Assembly (NCBI GenBank): GCA_039191105.1
Contig: JBCCXW010000001.1
Location: 23,353-87,352 of the forward strand
Length of the DNA: 64,000 nt
From: Pseudomonadota bacterium
Lineage (GTDB): Bacteria > Pseudomonadota > Alphaproteobacteria > Caulobacterales > Hyphomonadaceae
Reading direction: 5' to 3'
The position numbers and the translations under genes were made by a program. Each line of letters opens with the position of its first letter. Position 1 is the stretch's first letter. The notes below the pieces were generated by a model. The model saw nothing but the letters and a program-made list of their open reading frames with translations, was not told the DNA's origin and ran no database searches. Shown piece by piece: positions 16,814 to 40,958 of the stretch.

Positions 16814-18322
16814 TCAGTCGAAAGGACCGCTGTTCGAACGCTCGGTGATACGGTATCCGTCACCAAGCAGCTTTCGAGCGACCTCCAGACCTCTATCAGT
16901 TTCAGCTATGGGCGGTCTACGTCCGGCATCGACAACAACATTCGGGAGAACACCGCGGCCGTCAGGCGACGGTTGATCGCGCTCAAAGCGAACGAGTGGA
17001 ATATCAACCTTGATGCCGGAGGATGGTAAGATCAGTGTACAGTATCCGAAGGCTGTCGCACCTGCTGCAGCACCGCCAGTCTCTTCGCCTACAAACTGGG
17101 CGCGCTCCTCACGGTCTAAGACGGAGGCAACCTTCACGGCAGCAGACCCAGTCGCGCCAGAGATGAGAACCACGATCCGGCCTTCAAATGCATCAGGGCG
17201 AGGTGCGCGCTGGCTTGCTCCCGTGATTAGGTGCCCGAAGGTATCTTTGAGCCGATACAGCGATTCCGCGAACGGCTCAGACCAGGAAGGATCGAACGCG
17301 ACTTCGTTGGCATTCTCACAGTGCTGGGTAGCAGCGGGACGACCAACAAAACGTGTCAGAACGCGATCATATTCCTGAAACGGACGGTTCAGTAGGTTGT
17401 CGAGCAAGAGGGAGGAGATGTCACCTCCACCTTCATTCCGGCGCAGATCGAGGATCAAACTTGCACCTGGCCTCTCAGTAATATCATCGAAGATCGCGTT
17501 GAACTCTGTTTCCGCATCGAGCTTGTGCTCGTCGAAGTACCAATCATGAAAAGAGTTGATCGACAGGTACGCGACGCTTTCGTCCAGCCAGCGGAATTGG
17601 ATGGGAGCTGCACGCGGAAGACGGCTACGATAGAAGTTCGAAAAATCGACCCAATCGAGCGCATCAGAATAGACGGTTTGGACTGTGCCTTCTTCATTCT
17701 CGATGCTGATCGAATATCGACCTCTCTCTCCAAACCAGATCGGATAATTGAGATCGAAGTAGTTCTCGTTTTGCGTGGGTGTGAAGTCCTGCAATCTGCG
17801 GAGGGCAAAGGTCTCACTGAGCCCATCACTCGGGATGGTCATACGCAGTATCTCTTGCACCTCTCGAGCAGAGCGTCCGTCAAAAGCTGTGATCTCGTTA
17901 CCAACTAGGTGCTGAAGATCAGGATCAGCGACAGCCGCGACGTAGGGTGACGCATCAATCCATTGCACCGTGTAAGGAACCATCATGCGTCCCTCACGCC
18001 GTGAGGCGCGATAGGCATCTGGTGGGAATGGAATGACGTGCTCGTCTCTTGTGGCAACAGCTACACCCACAACAGCTTGGTAGAACTCCATCGGCTCCGG
18101 CGAGCGGGACGCTAATGCGTCTATTCCATCCAGCGCAGCCAAAACGTCCTCACGCTGCCCATACCGATCGAGGCTAGGATAGAGCTCGATCAGAGCTTCT
18201 CGTAAGATCGCCGCATCGTCCTCTAGAGCTTGTTTGGCTGGCGCTAGCGCTACGTCTGGCGCAGCGCACGCCGTAAGCAGCGCCGCACCAAAAGGAAGAA
18301 GTTTTGAGTAAAGACTATCCAT
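16814..18322 (-). CDS. S41-family peptidase lipoprotein
   Basis: ALLTAC lipobox; LILDLRRNEGG; TGSAA catalytic Ser; VGEETGG. Confidence 0.85.
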   Translation of the reverse strand: MDSLYSKLLPFGAALLTACAAPDVALAPAKQALEDDAAILREALIELYPSLDRYGQREDVLAALDGIDALASRSPEPMEFYQAVVGVAVATRDEHVIPFPPDAYRASRREGRMMVPYTVQWIDASPYVAAVADPDLQHLVGNEITAFDGRSAREVQEILRMTIPSDGLSETFALRRLQDFTPTQNENYFDLNYPIWFGERGRYSISIENEEGTVQTVYSDALDWVDFSNFYRSRLPRAAPIQFRWLDESVAYLSINSFHDWYFDEHKLDAETEFNAIFDDITERPGASLILDLRRNEGGGDISSLLLDNLLNRPFQEYDRVLTRFVGRPAATQHCENANEVAFDPSWSEPFAESLYRLKDTFGHLITGASQRAPRPDAFEGRIVVLISGATGSAAVKVASVLDREERAQFVGEETGGAAAGATAFGYCTLILPSSGIKVDIPLVRFERDQPSPDGRGVLPNVVVDAGRRPPIAETDRGLEVARKLLGDGYRITERSNSGPFD

Positions 18323-33194: not shown

Positions 33195-33563
33195 TCAACT
33201 TTCATCTTCGACCTCTTGTGGCCGACCGCCTTTACACCAATCAACACGACCTTCTTTCACCCAGAAATGACATCCGCACGAATTTTGCTGATGCACAGAC
33301 GGCGTTATGGTCGGACGCCGCCACCAATCGAGAGATACACGCCAGTACGGGCGCCTATTTGGGTTGAGCGATAGCTCAATTCGTTGACCGCACCCTCCGG
33401 GACATGGAAAAGCGGCCCATTTGGATACGCCGTCGGGACGAACCAGAATGAACTCATTGAGCCCACCTGTTTCTCGAGCCGGCAACTGCGGATGTATTGA
33501 AGCAACAAGATCACCTTTAAGAAGACCGAGCCTTTTGAGGAATCGAAAGAACGCTGTCTTCAT
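33195..33563 (-). CDS. DUF6527-like Cys/His metal-binding protein
   Basis: WAAFPCPGGCG...PTITPSVH...CGCHFWVKEGRVDWC; ATG 33563 is 1 nt after the E1 stop. Confidence 0.75.
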   Translation of the reverse strand: MKTAFFRFLKRLGLLKGDLVASIHPQLPARETGGLNEFILVRPDGVSKWAAFPCPGGCGQRIELSLNPNRRPYWRVSLDWWRRPTITPSVHQQNSCGCHFWVKEGRVDWCKGGRPQEVEDES

Positions 33564-33564
33564 T

Positions 33565-34965
33565 TCAGAGCACCATGTTAAGTAGGGGTTCAATATCGCC
33601 GCGCCCCAGCGTCTCAGGTGTCTCACAGGCTGGACAACCATGCATTCGTTCGATGAGGGGGAAGCGATCGTCGCACGCATGGAATCGGCGGATGCGGGTT
33701 GGCCGCATACCGTCGTGACCGTGGAACCCTGTGATCGCGGCAAGAAGTTCGTTTACCGCCATGCACGCCGCTTCCGTCGTGAAAGTCACAACCGCTGGCG
33801 ATGGATCACCTTCTCCGAGAACATATGCCTCCTCTTTCAATAAGGCATAGCTATCCGGGTCTCGACGTTTCAGCGCCTCTTCACTGGCCCGCCTCGGGTC
33901 AATATGGCCTCCGCAAATAAGGCAAGGATGTCCGTCGACAAGTGTCGATGTACGAGCAAAAAGATCGAAGCTGCCGGTTTCACGCTTCTGCATTGCCAAG
34001 CCAACGTCTATCACGGGGATTGAGTAGAACCGGCTGAAACGATTGAGCACCAAGCGTCCGGCGTGATCATCCGTGCACGAAAATACAATATCGCACGCCT
34101 TTAGCGCCTCGACACTGCCTGGGTCGCCGACGAATGCGTCAATTGTGACGAGGCGCATACCAAGATTGGTTTCTGCCACAGTCCGACTGTGAACGTCAGA
34201 CTTACGGGCGCGGTTTTCCGCATCAATACGTCGAGCGCCATGAAGACGATTGAGGTTTGAGTGCTCGACTATGTCTTTTTCAAGAAGAAGCGCATCGCAA
34301 ACGCCAAGCCGCATTAGTAAAGCGAGTACCGCGCTTCCCGTGGCTCCGCCGCCGGCGATGCCGATACGCAGCGAGGCGATAAGTTCGTTCGCAGCATCAC
34401 CGAACAAGCGAGCCTGCCGGTCTAAATAGTCTATGTTGGACTGCGATTTATCCGTATTTGACAGGCTGACTCGGGCGCCTACGTGGAAAATGCGATCAAT
34501 GGACTCGTACGTGTTTGCACTAGTCCAAACCCGCGCCAATATCTGCTCATCGCCGGTAATCACAATACTGATGAATCCTCGGCATCCTTTTAGGAATGCC
34601 GTGCGCGCGAGCTCGGCTTCGTTCTTGTCATCTTGCGCAGAAAAAGCCGCAGGACCGTTTGGGTGAGTATGGACAATTCCGGGGACGAAGCCTTCGTCAC
34701 TCGCCCGACCAAAGAGGCGCATAAGACTATCTGTCCCCCAGGTGATGTGGGCGGGAGAAGCGTCGACCAGTTCATGCTCTTTGATCGGAACTACAACATG
34801 ACTCATCAAGCGTCGGCGCGGCATGTTTGACCAAGGATCACAGCTGATTTCAGCGGACCCGAAAAGCATCGTCGCCGCCGCCTCATTCCCGCCGTCCGCG
34901 GCGAGGAGCGACTTGATCGCTTCGCCGTGCACGGCTTGTAGTATGATATCAACGGTTGCCATCAT
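33565..34965 (-). CDS. JAB/MPN+ peptidase fused to ThiF/E1-like adenylase
   Basis: JAB: E27 and HTHPNGPAAFSAQD (HxH-x7-S-x2-D). E1: GGGATGS, DIVEHSNLNRL, SCTDDHAGR, CLIC...CPAC zinc site. Confidence 0.9.
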   Translation of the reverse strand: MMATVDIILQAVHGEAIKSLLAADGGNEAAATMLFGSAEISCDPWSNMPRRRLMSHVVVPIKEHELVDASPAHITWGTDSLMRLFGRASDEGFVPGIVHTHPNGPAAFSAQDDKNEAELARTAFLKGCRGFISIVITGDEQILARVWTSANTYESIDRIFHVGARVSLSNTDKSQSNIDYLDRQARLFGDAANELIASLRIGIAGGGATGSAVLALLMRLGVCDALLLEKDIVEHSNLNRLHGARRIDAENRARKSDVHSRTVAETNLGMRLVTIDAFVGDPGSVEALKACDIVFSCTDDHAGRLVLNRFSRFYSIPVIDVGLAMQKRETGSFDLFARTSTLVDGHPCLICGGHIDPRRASEEALKRRDPDSYALLKEEAYVLGEGDPSPAVVTFTTEAACMAVNELLAAITGFHGHDGMRPTRIRRFHACDDRFPLIERMHGCPACETPETLGRGDIEPLLNMVL

Positions 34966-35891
34966 GCGCCTGCCGAAGCCAGTGCGACCTGAACACGCGC
35001 GATCATCGTTTGGAGCCCATCAATCCCTGGGCGCCAAGCCTGACAATGCCGCGACCAGCGTTGCCATGACCGCCCTGCGAAATTGTGGGCGACATTAGCC
35101 GCACGCGGTTCGCGTCCGCTGACCGACAGGCGCAGCCAGGGTGAGGCATAGAACATATCTGGAGCGATATCTGGGTAGCCTGCGGGCAGAATGATCAGGA
35201 TGTCTGCCGTTTCATGATCATATTTTCCCGCGGGCAGCGGGAATGCCTTCAGAATGACCCCTGGAGTGGTTCCGTGTTCGACAATATCGAATGTCAGGTT
35301 ACGGCTCTCCAGATACTGAAGATCGGAGGACGGGATAAGCTCCCGTCCCTCCGTTGTTTGATCAATGATTGAGATGAAACGCTCTACGCCGGGCTTATCC
35401 AAGTCGATAAGATCGCAATCATCGATTTTCTGGTCGTGCCCGCCCGGCACGTCGAGCCACAACGCATAGTTGGCTGCAAGCGAGGCCAGTTTTTTCAAAA
35501 CGAAGCCTGTGATGAAGCGCCGCGGCCATTCGAGGTCACGGTCGTCAATCTTGAACAAGTATTTCCGATCAGTTCGGGCGACAAGAATGCGCTCTGCTCC
35601 GCGACCCCGAAGATCATAAGGCTCATCGAGACGAATATCTTCGAAGTCCCCGTTGGGCAGGATCGCGATCGCGACGTACTCATGAACAGGCGCTCCGCCC
35701 GTCACTTCAATCAGTTGACGACCGAGTGGAAGCGGATCGTCGAGAACGAATGGTGAGAAGCTGAGGGTCTCATTTGCGATTTGCACACGAAAGCGCCGTC
35801 TTGGCTTCAACGGCCGACCAGCGTGAACCGCTTCAGCGAGATCGTCGATATCTGGCTCATCGCCGTTTTGGGGGGAATTAAGGGAGTCCAT
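34962..35891 (-). CDS. Two multi-ubiquitin-like domains fused to a prokaryotic E2 (family E-like)
   Basis: Repeated D.LDL...G.ERF/I Ubl motifs; internal TTEG (aa 179-182); E2: LPAGYPDIAPDMFY, WQRWSRH, WRPGIDGL. Confidence 0.85.
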   Translation of the reverse strand: MDSLNSPQNGDEPDIDDLAEAVHAGRPLKPRRRFRVQIANETLSFSPFVLDDPLPLGRQLIEVTGGAPVHEYVAIAILPNGDFEDIRLDEPYDLRGRGAERILVARTDRKYLFKIDDRDLEWPRRFITGFVLKKLASLAANYALWLDVPGGHDQKIDDCDLIDLDKPGVERFISIIDQTTEGRELIPSSDLQYLESRNLTFDIVEHGTTPGVILKAFPLPAGKYDHETADILIILPAGYPDIAPDMFYASPWLRLSVSGREPRAANVAHNFAGRSWQRWSRHCQAWRPGIDGLQTMIARVQVALASAGA

Positions 35892-35907
35892 TTGATTTTC
35901 CTTCTTG

Positions 35908-35937
35908 CTGAGGGAAGCCTCATGCTTCCGCTCTCAG
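35908..35937. repeat. Bulged hairpin between helicase and Ubl-E2 genes
   Basis: CTGAG/GGAAGC-CTCAT-GCTTCC/(GCT)/CTCAG. Confidence 0.5.
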
Positions 35938-35972
35938 AAGGGCAATCGCGTCGGTTTCGAAGAACCGGTAAG

Positions 35973-38900
35973 CTAGTTGAGATTTTTTTTCGTCAGGACC
36001 CCGGTTGGTGCCTCACCGCAGATAAAAAAATGAGGACAGCGTGGACATGTGCGGTCTGGTTTGGGCGGAAAGCGACCGTCGGCAATGGCTTTTCCGGCTT
36101 CGCCGATACGCTCGCGCCGGGTCTGCAGCTTCTTGTCGGTCAGATTAACATCTGACACGTCTGCATCAGCCAAGAAGACAAACTGAACATCGGCATGGTG
36201 CCCAACAGCCAGTTGATAAGCCGCTGCATCAAGACTGTCCGTCGCTTTTGAAGTCTTTCTGCCGGTCCATATGCGCCGCACGACGGTTCTGCCATCTGAC
36301 GTCCGAACTTTTTCATGCGGCGTAACAACGATTCTTGCAACGCCGAGATCAATTTCGAGGTCCGCCGCCTCTATGGTCTCGTCACCATCTTTTAAAGCCA
36401 GCAGCACATCGAACAGGCGTGTCGCCGCAGACTTGTAAAACGACGCATTTGGGTCATCCACAGGCCCCCGACTTTGCCAAAATTTGTCGAAGTCGAGAGC
36501 GGTATCAGGCTCGGCCAGAAGTGCGTCGACCGCACCCTGCACGGCCCCGTGCATCTTCATGAAAGGTGTTTCAGTTCGTCGGCCCCCGAGTCGAAGGACA
36601 TGTGTGTACAGAAAGCGGCGGGGACACTTCTCGTAAAGAGCCAGTTGAGACGGCGTAACAGCAAGTTTTTCGTCGAACCGAAGGTCGATGTTTAGCCCGC
36701 TCAGGTCGACGTCATCAGGCGCAGCGATGGGTGGTTGCCTAGTAACGCTTGATCCGAGACGCTCGATAAAAGGGGAGGGTTTTTGATTTCGCCCTCCTTT
36801 CTGTTTGGTTGGCGCATATAGCAGAAGATCATCTTCGGCGCGTGATAACGCCACGAAGAAAAGACATTCTTGTTCTTCTTCGTGTCCTGACTTCAGCGCA
36901 TCGAGGCCGGAGCCCTGGACCCCTTCGATCATTCCATCTGGCGGAGGTAGAGCATTCATTTGATTAGCAGACTGAGGGATGGATGCGGCAGTTAACGAAG
37001 GAACGTGGACGGCTTTGAACTCGAGTCCCTTGCTTTTGTGGATCGTAAGTAGGTTTACCGCATCGAGCGCTTGCGCCGCGTCGGGTAGATCACGCAAATC
37101 GCGTTCATCTGATAGGATGACAAGACGACGGATATGATCAAGCAGGTTACTGGTTGGATACCCTCGACTATCCAAGCGGACAGTACGGAGGAAATTCTGC
37201 AACTGCCATAACGCTATAGCTGGCAATGGCGCTCCATTTAGCAATTCACCGGCATATTCAGCGGCCAACCGCGTATGGTCCAGATAAAGTGATGCAAAGG
37301 CTCGCCATGGTGTCGTACCGGGTTCGAACCCGTTATATGCGCCGCTGAGGTTCCGAAAGGTGTCACGACCCGCTTCGGAAATCTGCCCCTCGCTTGGGAG
37401 AAGGGATCTCCACTGCAAAGGCTCCAGGGATGAAGCTTCGGAGAGTACTTTGGCTGCGGCTGCGACATCGTCGATAGAAATTGGGAAAGCCGAACTCGTT
37501 GCTATTTTGGCTATTCCCATTGCTCTCGGATCAACAAGCAGCGATAGAAACGAAAGCGCTTCTTTTACTTCTGCACGGTCGAATAAAGGGCCAAGGAATA
37601 GGACGGGAATTCCGCGCGCATCGAGATTAGCGGCAATCTCAGCTAATCGATCATTGGCCTTGCATAGAACCGCTTGATCACGAAACGCGCAGCCACTTTC
37701 CCGTTTTTCGCGGATTCTTGCGGCGAGTTCGTTTAGCTCATCATTCTTTGTACCGACCTCTACATAGGAAGGCGTGACACCGGAAGCACCACGCTCGGCG
37801 ATCGCTTCGAAACCGACTTCCGCAGCTCGCATGTCGCACTTTGCGAAACCAGCGAAGGCGTCGCAAATTTCCTGGGTTGAACGATAATTCGTGGACAGGT
37901 TCTTTATGACGCCGCCGGAAAAATCCGTGTCTCCAAAACGTTCCATATTGATCGAAGAAGCTCCGCGGAAGCGATAGATGGATTGTTTCGCATCGCCTAC
38001 GACCCAGAGCCCGTCTCCGCTCGGTTTGAGCGCGGTCAACAGCCTAACGCTGGCGCGATTGACGTCCTGATACTCGTCGACAAGCACATGTTCGAAACGC
38101 GCTTGAAGCTGCTCGCGTACGATTTTGTCACTCTCTAACAGCGCAACAGCTCGCGCCACCAAGTCACCAAAGTCGAGTATGCCATGTTCAGCTTTTAGCG
38201 CTTCGTATGCGGAGTAGACTTTTGAGATCTCCGTGCATTTTTCGCCAAGCAAACGGGCATCGTCATTCCCGGCGGTGTCGAGCATCGTTTTCGCGAGCGC
38301 AGCGTATTGCTCATGATCAACCACCTCGTCTTTGGCGCGAGAAATCGCCGCCAATAGGTCCCGCAGTTTGTCAGTTGGATCGCGAAGCTCGCGGAAATGC
38401 TCTAGTTCAAGGCGAACATATTCGTTTTCGAGGAGCGCTACTGCTTCCGCAGTGTCTACAAGCCTGGGATCTTCTGGCAGTCCGGCGCGGTCGCTAAATC
38501 GCCTCAAGAGATCGAGACCAAACGAATGAAACGTGCCGAGGGTGATCTCGCCAGCGGCTTCGGGCCATATAGAGAGGGCACGCTCGCTAAGTTCGCCAGC
38601 CGCTTTGTTCGAGAAAGTCAAAACAAGAATTGAACTGGGGTCGACGCCTTGGCTTTTTAGAACGCTCAGCCTGCCGATGAGCGTTTGTGTTTTTCCAGTG
38701 CCGGGCCCCGCGCGCAGAAGAAGAGGGCTTCCATTATGGTTCGCCGCATCTGCCTGTTCAGAGTTGAGCGGCTTTGGAGGGCGCTTTTCAGTGGGCGTAA
38801 TTTTTAAAGCTGGAAGCCAAAGAGCATCGAATAGTTGAACGGCAACCATGTCGTAAGGGGCACCCAAACACTCAGCAATCTCCTTTGCGGTTCGTCCGTC

Positions 38901-39356
38901 TTCAAGGTGCCAGCTCCGCGCAAGAGTGCGTGGAAACAAGAACTCACGCGCGAAGAGGTCCATTTGAACCTCCTGTCGGGCTTTCTGGCTGTAGTCTACG
39001 ACACGCTCCGCGCCAGACGCGTCGGTCCCATCGCTCGATCGTGCAGGGTCGATGTCTGTGGACGGCGCGAACATCACATGCCCGCCAAATTCAGCATGTC
39101 CTATTTCATGCGCAACGAAGAACGCGTTGATAAAGCTATCGCTGGTGTCTTCGTGGCGGATCGTGCCGGCAGGATCGTAGAGCGCCCGCCCGCCATCCAG
39201 CATTTCATGGCCCGCTGGATAGATGCGAACTTCTATGTCTCGACGCCGCGCTTCTTTAAGGACGAACGCATACGGATCGGTTGGATCGCCGCCCGCCGCA
39301 ACAATCTCCGCGTGCAGCTCGGCGGCGCGTTGGCGGATAAGCTCAATTTGAGCCAT
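35973..39356 (-). CDS. ImmA/IrrE metallopeptidase + UvrD/PcrA helicase + degenerate PD-(D/E)XK (Fe-S) domain fusion
   Basis: AHEIGH...[14 protein letters not shown]; [55 protein letters not shown]; CPRRF...[10 protein letters not shown]. Confidence 0.92.
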
Positions 39357-39906
39357 CAGATTGCGCGAGGCGACTTAAGGCGGCCTCTTCTTCCGATGTT
39401 AAGGCGAGTCCTTCGATGAACGCAGCGTAATCCATTTGCTCCGCCCGAGCGGGCTTCCCATCAGCTTTGAACGCTAAAGCGGGACCAGTGGCATCACCGC
39501 TGGATAAATAACGAACAAAGTCATGAAGACGCACACCGATCATTCGCGAAAGGCCCGAAAGCACTGGCTCCGGCGTCGATCCAAAACGAATACGTCGGTC
39601 GCGAAAGCCTGCCAGAAAGTCTCGCGGCAAACCAATCTGTTTGGCTAATTCGCGAATGCCTTCGTTTGAAAATGCCGCTTGCAATTTTCCTACAGCAACC
39701 ATCTGGGGCTGCGCTGATTTCGTCTCGAAGCGAACCTCCTCCGCACCCGCGCGCGCTTCCGCTAAAGTGATTTCATGGAATAAATCGGTGAGCTCAATGG
39801 CGAGATCGGGATATCGGTCAATGTATGTTTTGAGGAGGGCGTGAGAGATTTCTTCCTCCATCGTGAACTCCTCAAAAACGTCTTCTGGATCAAGGTTCGG
39901 GCTCAT
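39343..39906 (-). CDS. Hypothetical protein with central XRE-like HTH (candidate anti-sigma/repressor)
   Basis: [16 protein letters not shown]-terminus; [23 protein letters not shown]-like segment; overlaps both neighbours. Confidence 0.55.
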
Positions 39907-40715
39907 TTCTTCACCTCGATTCCAAGCTCTTCGCGAATTGTTTTGAAAGCGCTTTTGCGGCGGTTTCTGACCGTCTTGTCGGTGCAGCCGAGGATTTTAG
40001 AGATCGACGGATCGCCAGGAGCTTTAGCTTGGTCTTGAATTCCGGCTTCCTGCATATCGAGTATTCTCCTTTCGTTCTCCGGGAGTTTGTCAATCGCAGC
40101 ACGGAGCTGAAACCGGTAAGTCACTGTTTCTTCCGGCGTCATATTAGATGGGCTGTAGCGATCAAGACTCTCTTCAACCTCCGACGGGACGTCGCCCGTT
40201 TCATCGTACTCTAGCGGCGTGAGCGGTTTGTTCTTGCCATAGACTTTGCGCCCCGCGCTTGCCCTGAGCTTGGCAACAGCGCGATCGAACACAACCTCAA
40301 AGATATCAAGCCGCTCTTCATAGCTTTGTCGGTCTTGAAGAATAAGCATGGTGAAGCGCTCTAGGACGTTTTCTTGAAGGTCGGCTAAGGTGCCAATTTC
40401 CCCGATGCCGCCTGCAATCGTAACGTCTTTTTGCGGACACACGCGCCTTATTCGATCTTCGAGAATTTCGAATAGCAGGCCAAATCCCACTTCTGAATTG
40501 TGCTGCCGCGTCAGTCTTAAACGATGGACCAAGAGTTCCGACGGCACGTAGTCAGGTGACTTTCGATTGTGGTTTTTCGCTCTGTCGGCCAATTCATTGA
40601 TTGGTAACGCGGCGAATTCTTGGAGCAGCTTTTCGGTCCTAGGCAGCCGTTTGTACGGCTCTCCAGTTTTTCTGACTTTTCGGAGTGGCGGTGGTTCGTA
40701 GGTCGTGTCAGCCAT
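39903..40715 (-). CDS. Divergent sigma-70/ECF-like factor
   Basis: Region-4-like IDKLPENERRIL...ISKILGCTDKTVRNRRKSAFKTIR; alternative start 40760. Confidence 0.7.
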   Translation of the reverse strand: MADTTYEPPPLRKVRKTGEPYKRLPRTEKLLQEFAALPINELADRAKNHNRKSPDYVPSELLVHRLRLTRQHNSEVGFGLLFEILEDRIRRVCPQKDVTIAGGIGEIGTLADLQENVLERFTMLILQDRQSYEERLDIFEVVFDRAVAKLRASAGRKVYGKNKPLTPLEYDETGDVPSEVEESLDRYSPSNMTPEETVTYRFQLRAAIDKLPENERRILDMQEAGIQDQAKAPGDPSISKILGCTDKTVRNRRKSAFKTIREELGIEVKK

Positions 40716-40958
40716 GTTCTGCCCATCAGTATGAACATCAAGAATTGAAGGGCGTAACACTCCGATGTTTGTATTTGGACGGCATTACACGCGGAGTGAG
40801 TTTAGTTCGATTCTCGATCGACACGCGCGATTTATTTCAGAGTACTTCGTCTTTCGATCGTTGTCTAAATAGCAGGCGCTGAAGTTGATTGCCCTCCGTC
40901 CAACCCGAAAAATACGACTACGCGGCAATCTAAAAACGGCTCCGTGAGGTCTCAATGA

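Follow-up and report, generated by a model that had tools for sequence, protein, structure and literature searches.

The window analyzed here is a 64,000-nucleotide (nt) stretch of a Hyphomonadaceae genome (Pseudomonadota bacterium; GenBank assembly GCA_039191105.1, contig JBCCXW010000001.1, positions 23,353 to 87,352 of the forward strand), and all positions given below are those of the window. A three-gene cassette on its minus strand precedes a Type I Bub operon, here called the cargo, and encodes a diverged sigma-70-family factor of extracytoplasmic function (ECF)-like build, a 187-amino acid (aa) partner protein and a fusion of an M78 peptidase with a UvrD-type helicase. Together with a promoter-like motif of its own ahead of the Bub operon, the cassette apparently constitutes a widespread, undescribed switch.

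Organization and distribution of the cassette

The sigma gene (40760..39903, minus) has a longest open reading frame (ORF) of 285 aa that starts with GTG at 40760. Because its homologues begin at the residue corresponding to M16 of this ORF, the probable start is the ATG at 40714, which gives a protein of ~270 aa. The partner gene (39906..39343, minus), called from its ORF and its homologue family, shares the ATGA (gaagaaATGAgcc) with the sigma ORF, as the initial annotation had stated, and overlaps by 14 nt the gene for the 1127-aa M78-UvrD fusion (39356..35973, minus; called from domain matches). A gap of 81 nt separates the fusion gene from the Bub operon (35891..33195, minus), which was identified by domain matches and contains genes for a BubAB-like protein (Multi_ubiq and Prok-E2_E, 35891..34962), a BubCD-like protein (JAB and ThiF E1, 34965..33565) and BubE (DUF6527, 33743..33195). 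Upstream of the sigma gene is an 18-nt direct repeat (40803-40820 and 40843-40860), the copies of which are 78% identical and 40 nt apart. Each copy opens with the palindrome CGATCG on the gene strand, and the repeat may be an operator or may have arisen by chance.

Scanning a single genome for each species yielded 131 relatives, and 80 loci were kept from these. The order of sigma gene, gene for a partner homologue of 182-202 aa and M78-UvrD fusion gene is retained in ~75 of the 80, and the typical overlaps are retained with it, so both the sigma and the partner gene are taken to be real. The overlap between sigma and partner genes measures 4 nt in 47 of 77 loci and 11 nt in another 20 (67/77 together). 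Hosts include Alpha- and Gammaproteobacteria, Planctomycetota, Verrucomicrobiota, Acidobacteriota, Cyanobacteria and Myxococcus. The cargo of related loci is Type I Bub or Type II Bub (Multi_ubiq, DUF6791-ThiF, DUF6527), with two exceptions: one locus carries a ubiquitin-plus-E1 pair and one carries unknown genes. Known plasmids with the sigma homologue number 78 (NC_015258.1, L095:8926-10358, is an example); 45 come from Acinetobacter, many are rhizobial, and 64 are mobilizable or conjugative. The partner is labelled hypothetical in the single plasmid record inspected. Locus L069 (9917-14342) has a sigma homologue with the internal motif described below, followed by no recognizable partner or M78-UvrD gene, and may be a decayed or rearranged cassette.

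The probable sigma factor, its promoter-like motif and the Bub leader

Homologues of the sigma-like protein formed 47 clusters in a database search and are ~270 aa long and conserved along their whole length. The AlphaFold2 (AF2) model has a mean predicted local distance difference test score (pLDDT) of 77, with folded parts mostly above 85. It contains an N-terminal extension that reaches to about residue 72, a sigma2-like helical domain (residues ~73-177), a disordered linker (residues 178-204) and, after the linker, a sigma4 domain. The extension is conserved, ~57 aa long and modelled at pLDDT >90, and it carries the motifs PPLRK..G..Y.R.P..E and PDYVPSE. The sigma4 domain bears a conserved insertion of ~10 aa (about residues 241-251, IQDQAKAPGDP). 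Two features named in the initial annotation, a region-4 helix-turn-helix (HTH) with a short insertion and an unusual N-terminal extension, are thus both present, and the fold around the insertion matches sigma4 domains at Z of about 10.

The family profile aligned with region 4 of FliA (E=2.8e-5) across a 6-residue gap on the FliA side, and in this alignment the extra residues fall between the first and second HTH helices. When the C-terminal domain of the AF2 model was compared with solved structures, it matched SigE region 4 with Z 10.1 and a root-mean-square deviation (rmsd) of 1.6 A over 66 residues, and WhiG with Z 10.4; sigma4 domains overall gave Z of ~10 and rmsd of 1.6-1.8 A. All Foldseek matches to the full model were sigma-70-family proteins, among them the ECF sigmas SigE, AlgU, SigW, SigK and SigH, which aligned over ~200 columns with probabilities of 0.99-1.0 and E values of 4e-3 to 2e-2. 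Searching the own genome with the curated sigma model gave 22 matches, among which this protein ranked lowest; 18 of the others exceed the cut-off. With hhalign, the family aligned to two ECF sigmas of the same genome in region 4 only and with a probability below 2%, and such single-sequence templates are uninformative for region 2. PADLOC has no model for the protein. Taken as predictions from sequence and model, these comparisons strongly support a diverged sigma factor of ECF-like build.

Comparison across loci revealed a bipartite, non-palindromic motif, TT[A/T]CCGG-N16-CGATTG, with a spacer of variable sequence. Between the fusion gene and the cargo, loci seem to share no similarity outside the two blocks cTT[A/T]CCGG and CGATTG. 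Loci from different phyla carry this cargo-side motif (66 of 74), nearly always with the 16-nt spacer (63 of the 66), at 53-74 nt ahead of the cargo start codon. In the window it directly follows the stop codon of the M78-UvrD gene (TTACCGG 35971-35965, CGATTG 35948-35943, minus). A second copy is found within the sigma gene in 73 of 81 loci, 71 of which keep the 16-nt spacer; in the window (TTACCGG 40119-40113, CGATTG 40096-40091, minus) this internal copy encodes YRFQLRAAID. Transcription from it would yield a 5' untranslated region of ~180 nt and drive the partner and M78-UvrD genes.

The internal copy was examined at the codon level in 46 loci below 80% amino-acid identity. Codons at motif positions are near-fixed, with CGG at R216 in 43/44, GCG at A222 in 45/45 and ATT at I223 in 42/45. 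Codon bias was rejected as the source, since elsewhere in the gene conserved Arg, Ala and Ile residues are encoded by a mixture of codons: the top-codon share is 0.28-0.55 at eight conserved Arg columns and 0.36-0.40 at two Ala columns, and I253 favours ATC. At these near-fixed synonymous positions selection therefore acts on the nucleotide sequence and not on the encoded residues. In 58 of 63 loci the -35 block carries the same A/T variant ahead of the cargo as it does inside the sigma gene. In the internal copy the A/T choice falls in sigma codon 215 (window 40118-40116), where it swaps Tyr and Phe, so at this codon the protein sequence tracks promoter specificity.

A third copy lies upstream of the sigma gene in 23 loci, mostly of sphingomonad and Caulobacter types (L048, L050, L054-L059, L064, L066, L071-L077, L045, L052, L060, L065 and L067 are listed with it). 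Its -10 block is ~25-120 nt ahead of the predicted sigma start and its spacer is mostly 15 nt; positive autoregulation is therefore implied in such loci. No copy upstream of sigma was found in the window or its closest relatives. The locus sequences together (2.89 Mb) contain 131 strict matches to the motif, of which 121 are at the three expected places and several of the remaining ten are displaced cargo promoters. A loose pattern gave 8 matches in the own 3.78-Mb genome against 3 for a control, and the TTACCGG form occurs there at only two sites, both in this operon.

The asymmetry, spacing and position of the motif are those of an ECF-type promoter. The idea of a "private" sigma, raised in the initial annotation, is strongly supported by the fixed-spacing motif ahead of the cargo and inside the sigma gene, and we consider it likely that the 285-aa protein serves as a dedicated sigma factor with the bipartite motif as its promoter.

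The Bub leader (35889..35942, minus), which follows the cargo motif, contains an inner GC-rich hairpin. An anti-Shine-Dalgarno (anti-SD) element, CCTTCT (35941-35936), pairs with the Shine-Dalgarno (SD) element AGAAGG (35905-35900), and the BubAB start codon is at 35891-35889. The leaders were analyzed through per-sequence folds and through duplex energies of cognate and non-cognate pairs; a consensus fold (RNAalifold) of 26 leaders aligned with MAFFT yielded no structure because of the many indels in the alignment. The SD core is paired in the minimum-energy fold of 51 of 60 distinct leaders, and 49 of those 51 pair it with a strand at leader positions 7-13, 1-7 nt downstream of the -10 block. 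Mean anti-SD/SD duplex energies are -11.0 kcal/mol for cognate, -7.7 kcal/mol for non-cognate and -5.8 kcal/mol for shuffled pairs. Both strands change in a paired manner between clades (CCTTCT/AGAAGG, CCTTGTG/CACAAGG and TTACTCCT/AGGAGTAA), and deletion of leader positions 1-12 frees the SD in 39 of the 60 leaders. A transcript cannot start so near its own -10 element. The anti-SD, which falls in the discriminator of the promoter, is therefore expected only in read-through transcripts from the sensor genes, and the leader would block translation of the cargo for as long as the private promoter is silent. Transcripts initiated by sigma would begin beyond the anti-SD and be translated.

The partner, the fusion protein and the proposed switch

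The closest described arrangement is CapH with CapP (relatives DdrO with IrrE and ImmR with ImmA), which accompanies CBASS, Bil and Bub operons. CapP is an M78 peptidase activated by single-stranded DNA (ssDNA), with a C-terminal GAF domain that forms the ssDNA groove and with a cysteine switch loop. Its cut in the HTH protein CapH falls at F82|R83, after the HTH and before the two C-terminal helices that form a dimerisation element.

The partner belongs to an unnamed family with 1658 representatives at 50% identity (profile search, E<=1e-3), nearly all of them 180-205 aa long. Its model (pLDDT 86) has a conserved N-terminal three-helix domain (residues 1-57, helices 7-57), a variable and poorly predicted linker (after 57, before 65), a five-helix XRE-like HTH domain (residues 65-135), an exposed linker without secondary structure (residues 136-158) and two C-terminal helices (residues 160-182). 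The initial annotation had seen here a short helical N-terminus, an XRE-like HTH and an exposed-looking segment, G141-G150. The N-terminus is helical as described, and it is more than short, since its three helices form a domain. The XRE-like assignment agrees with the neighbours of the five-helix domain, which are XRE-type HTH domains only, but these matches are weak (NGO0477 Z 5.2, SinR Z 3.4, 3f6w Z 3.2). The exposed segment was borne out by the model, which shows no secondary structure there and gives the block its lowest pLDDT, 59. A few family members have sub-threshold matches to HTH_26, Phage_CI_repr and HTH_3, and the ESM Atlas neighbour cluster of the partner carries HTH_31.

In an alignment of 148 representatives, the best-conserved N-terminal residues are E8, V10, L11, F14, E17, L25, Y28, Y32-P33, L39, D41-L42 and E45. 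Codons G141-P152 of the exposed linker (39451..39486, minus) include the motif [F/Y]-K-[A/S]-D-x-K-P, and K147, A/S148, K151 and P152 rank with the best-conserved positions of the same alignment. The residue ahead of K147 is usually aromatic (33-locus alignment). The linker is thus the least confident part of the model, yet it holds the most conserved short motif.

Comparison of the family profile with PDB sequences, including the solved CapH and CapP chains, returned nothing meaningful, and Foldseek found no PDB match below E=2.4. The N-terminal domain has generic helical structure matches only, with Z up to 6, and a conserved Cys/His motif of the H-x3-C-x2-C type is absent from the family alignment. 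A marginal PADLOC match to Csx1/Csm6 (E=0.0057) was put down to chance.

The fusion protein begins with an M78/IrrE-type peptidase domain (residues ~37-175, bases 38832-39248, minus; Peptidase_M78 E=8.6e-9) that contains the conserved HExxH motif H83-E-I-G-H87 (39110-39096, minus). A UvrD-type superfamily 1 helicase forms the middle, and a PD-(D/E)XK/Cas4-like domain with four conserved Cys forms the C-terminus (window 35973-36330). The HExxH, a downstream E..D.FA.EFL.P motif and the helicase motifs are conserved in 71 fusion sequences. Among these 71, no Cys is conserved in residues 1-190, and thus no conserved cysteine switch is present; there is also no GAF domain, the UvrD and PD-(D/E)XK-like domains following the M78 domain instead. 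Activation must therefore differ from that of CapP. At the C-terminus, C911, C1104, C1107 and C1113 are conserved in the 71 sequences while the acidic positions expected of PD-(D/E)XK are almost unconserved, so an iron-sulfur (Fe-S) DNA-binding module fits better than an active nuclease. The fusion is presumed to be both DNA sensor and protease.

We propose the following switch. At rest, all three genes would be expressed from a weak upstream promoter, and the partner would hold sigma inactive, most likely by binding it through the conserved N-terminal three-helix domain. On meeting abnormal DNA (ends, ssDNA, phage or damage intermediates) through its UvrD/nuclease-like part, the fusion would cleave the partner in the exposed linker with its M78 peptidase, most likely at F146|K147, much as CapP cleaves CapH. 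Released sigma would guide RNA polymerase to the cargo promoter and switch on Bub. From its place within the sigma gene, the internal promoter would transcribe only the partner and protease-helicase genes; by replenishing partner and sensor it would act as negative feedback that resets the switch. The whole reading, in which a helicase-M78 sensor destroys a soluble HTH anti-sigma factor and so frees a private sigma for Bub or Bil operons, with the leader as an additional read-through layer, is given a probability of roughly 0.35.

That the partner would serve as both anti-sigma factor and M78 substrate, as the initial annotation had suggested, is by analogy a tentative claim with slightly less than an even chance. 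Translational coupling to sigma (ATGA here) and a conserved N-terminal domain that has no counterpart in the published description of CapH favour an anti-sigma role, and feedback by an inhibitor would make sense of a sigma-dependent promoter that transcribes the partner gene without the sigma gene. The cleavage near AFK proposed in the same annotation is reasonable, and by analogy it would occur at F146|K147, between bases 39469 and 39468, because the aromatic-basic pair sits there as it does in CapH. If the switch operates in this way, it would represent a fourth, undescribed regulator class for Bub/Bil ubiquitin-like operons, would extend the logic of ImmA, IrrE and CapP from repressor cutting to sigma release, and would link an M78 protease with an ATP-driven helicase that senses DNA. 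According to the Bub literature, the biological role and triggers of Bub operons are still unknown. For these operons the cassette provides a promoter and a factor that are both defined, together with a candidate sensor.

Several results weigh against the proposed switch. On the sigma side, the Pfam matches are sub-threshold (Sigma70_r4_2, 22.9 bits against a cut-off of 25.7; Sigma70_r4, 17.3 bits), as is that to TIGR02937 (22.5 bits against 42.9). Pfam gives no Sigma70_r2 match, so region 2 is undetectable by sequence. Two-domain VIA alignments have rmsd of 11-20 A, and the sigma2 assignment therefore depends on the Foldseek local alignment alone; support for the sigma2 domain of the 285-aa protein is structural and moderate. 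On the partner side, no anti-sigma family or fold was found in Pfam, NCBIfam, PADLOC or the structure matches, and the middle domain resembles the XRE HTH with which genuine repressors bind DNA. Among the longer forms searched, none fused the partner to sigma or to the protease, which is weak evidence. Loss of the 40 C-terminal residues would cause no obvious release of a sigma held by the N-terminal domain, and the M78 part has neither the GAF domain nor the conserved cysteine switch of CapP.

In a different scheme, the partner would be a CapH-like DNA-binding repressor of a primary promoter upstream of sigma; M78 cleavage would derepress this promoter, and sigma would then amplify expression of the cargo. 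The XRE-like HTH of the partner and its CapH-like order of HTH, linker and C-terminal helices fit such a role, as does the fact that M78 peptidases with known substrates (ImmA, IrrE and CapP) cleave HTH repressors, and the CGATCG-bearing direct repeat upstream of sigma could provide an operator. Two-copy repeats often arise by chance, however, and the sequence upstream of sigma is unconserved even between the closest loci. The cargo, internal and upstream promoters have only their -35 and -10 elements in common, with no conserved palindrome beside any of the three, which argues against an operator-binding repressor. This scheme also leaves unexplained the best-conserved part of the partner, its N-terminal three-helix domain, which CapH as described lacks. 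We consider it unlikely, although worth keeping in view.

It is improbable that the 285-aa protein is instead a LuxR/GerE-type activator or repressor that reads the bipartite motif by itself and is no RNA polymerase subunit. Such a role would agree with the single C-terminal HTH visible by sequence, with the lack of any match reaching a curated sigma threshold, and with the label given to the plasmid homologues by the Prokaryotic Genome Annotation Pipeline (PGAP), response regulator transcription factor. LuxR/GerE and NarL-type domains align as well (Z 5.5-7.5), but sigma4 domains score clearly higher (Z 9-10), and the Foldseek alignments span whole ECF sigmas. The protein has no receiver domain, and, in contrast to the palindromes of LuxR-type regulators, the bipartite motif is asymmetric and is spaced and placed like -35 and -10 elements.

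Equally improbable is an uncleaved partner that acts as a positive co-factor or adaptor docking sigma or DNA onto the helicase, with a ubiquitin-like precursor or a phage protein as M78 target. In favour of this reading, partner cleavage is proposed by analogy, the M78 part lacks the GAF domain at which CapP docks the HTH domain of CapH, and the cassette is tied to a cargo that itself requires proteolytic maturation. Against it, Type I BubAB maturation has been shown to be carried out by the JAB domain of BubCD, adjoining and overlapping HTH and M78 genes are the signature of protease-substrate pairs, and the conserved, exposed aromatic-basic motif would otherwise be unexplained.

Comparison with known systems

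Like CapH and CapP, the window has an M78 HExxH gene that adjoins and overlaps a small HTH-protein gene, in a module upstream of a Bub-type immune or stress operon, and the partner model, starting with its XRE-like HTH at residue 65, follows the CapH arrangement of HTH, aromatic-basic linker and two C-terminal helices. The peptidase here continues into a UvrD helicase and a Cas4-like Fe-S domain and, unlike CapP, has no GAF domain or conserved cysteine switch, while the partner, unlike CapH, carries an additional conserved N-terminal three-helix domain. A dedicated sigma gene precedes the pair, and the output promoter would be sigma-specific and not operator-controlled.

ECF (group 4) sigma factors with a co-transcribed anti-sigma factor whose release depends on regulated proteolysis, such as SigE-RseA and SigW-RsiW, share with the cassette a protein of predicted sigma2-like and sigma4 domains, an overlapping partner gene next to it, a promoter of -35, N16 and -10 geometry, and, as predicted for the cassette, a cognate promoter that feeds back on the module; in the loci with the upstream motif copy this feedback resembles classical autoregulation. 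They differ in that the sigma here fails all curated ECF models and has the N-terminal extension and the sigma4 insertion. The partner here is soluble, without an ASD/ZAS signature and with an XRE-like HTH, and the presumed protease is a cytoplasmic M78 peptidase on a helicase, whereas SigE-RseA and SigW-RsiW depend on site-1/site-2 membrane proteases. The feedback promoter of the window is located inside the sigma gene and so excludes sigma.

The cargo in the window (Multi_ubiq-E2, JAB-E1 and DUF6527) is like that of the Type I Bub operons described by the Corbett laboratory. Published regulators of 544 Bub operons are of three types, CapW, CapH+CapP and CapK+CapS. Neither a sigma factor nor a helicase-fused peptidase is mentioned in the main text of the Bub-regulator papers, and the published CapH+CapP class may include some of the present loci. 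A literature search on the trio of sigma, partner and M78-UvrD found nothing relevant.

Genes beyond the cargo were also compared with the motif. No strict copy lies ahead of the SbcD-like gene of the window (33072). In locus L062, a strict copy (17059-17086) is located ~120 nt upstream of the gene for an SbcD-like phosphoesterase that follows the cargo, and this nuclease may therefore join the sigma regulon in some loci.

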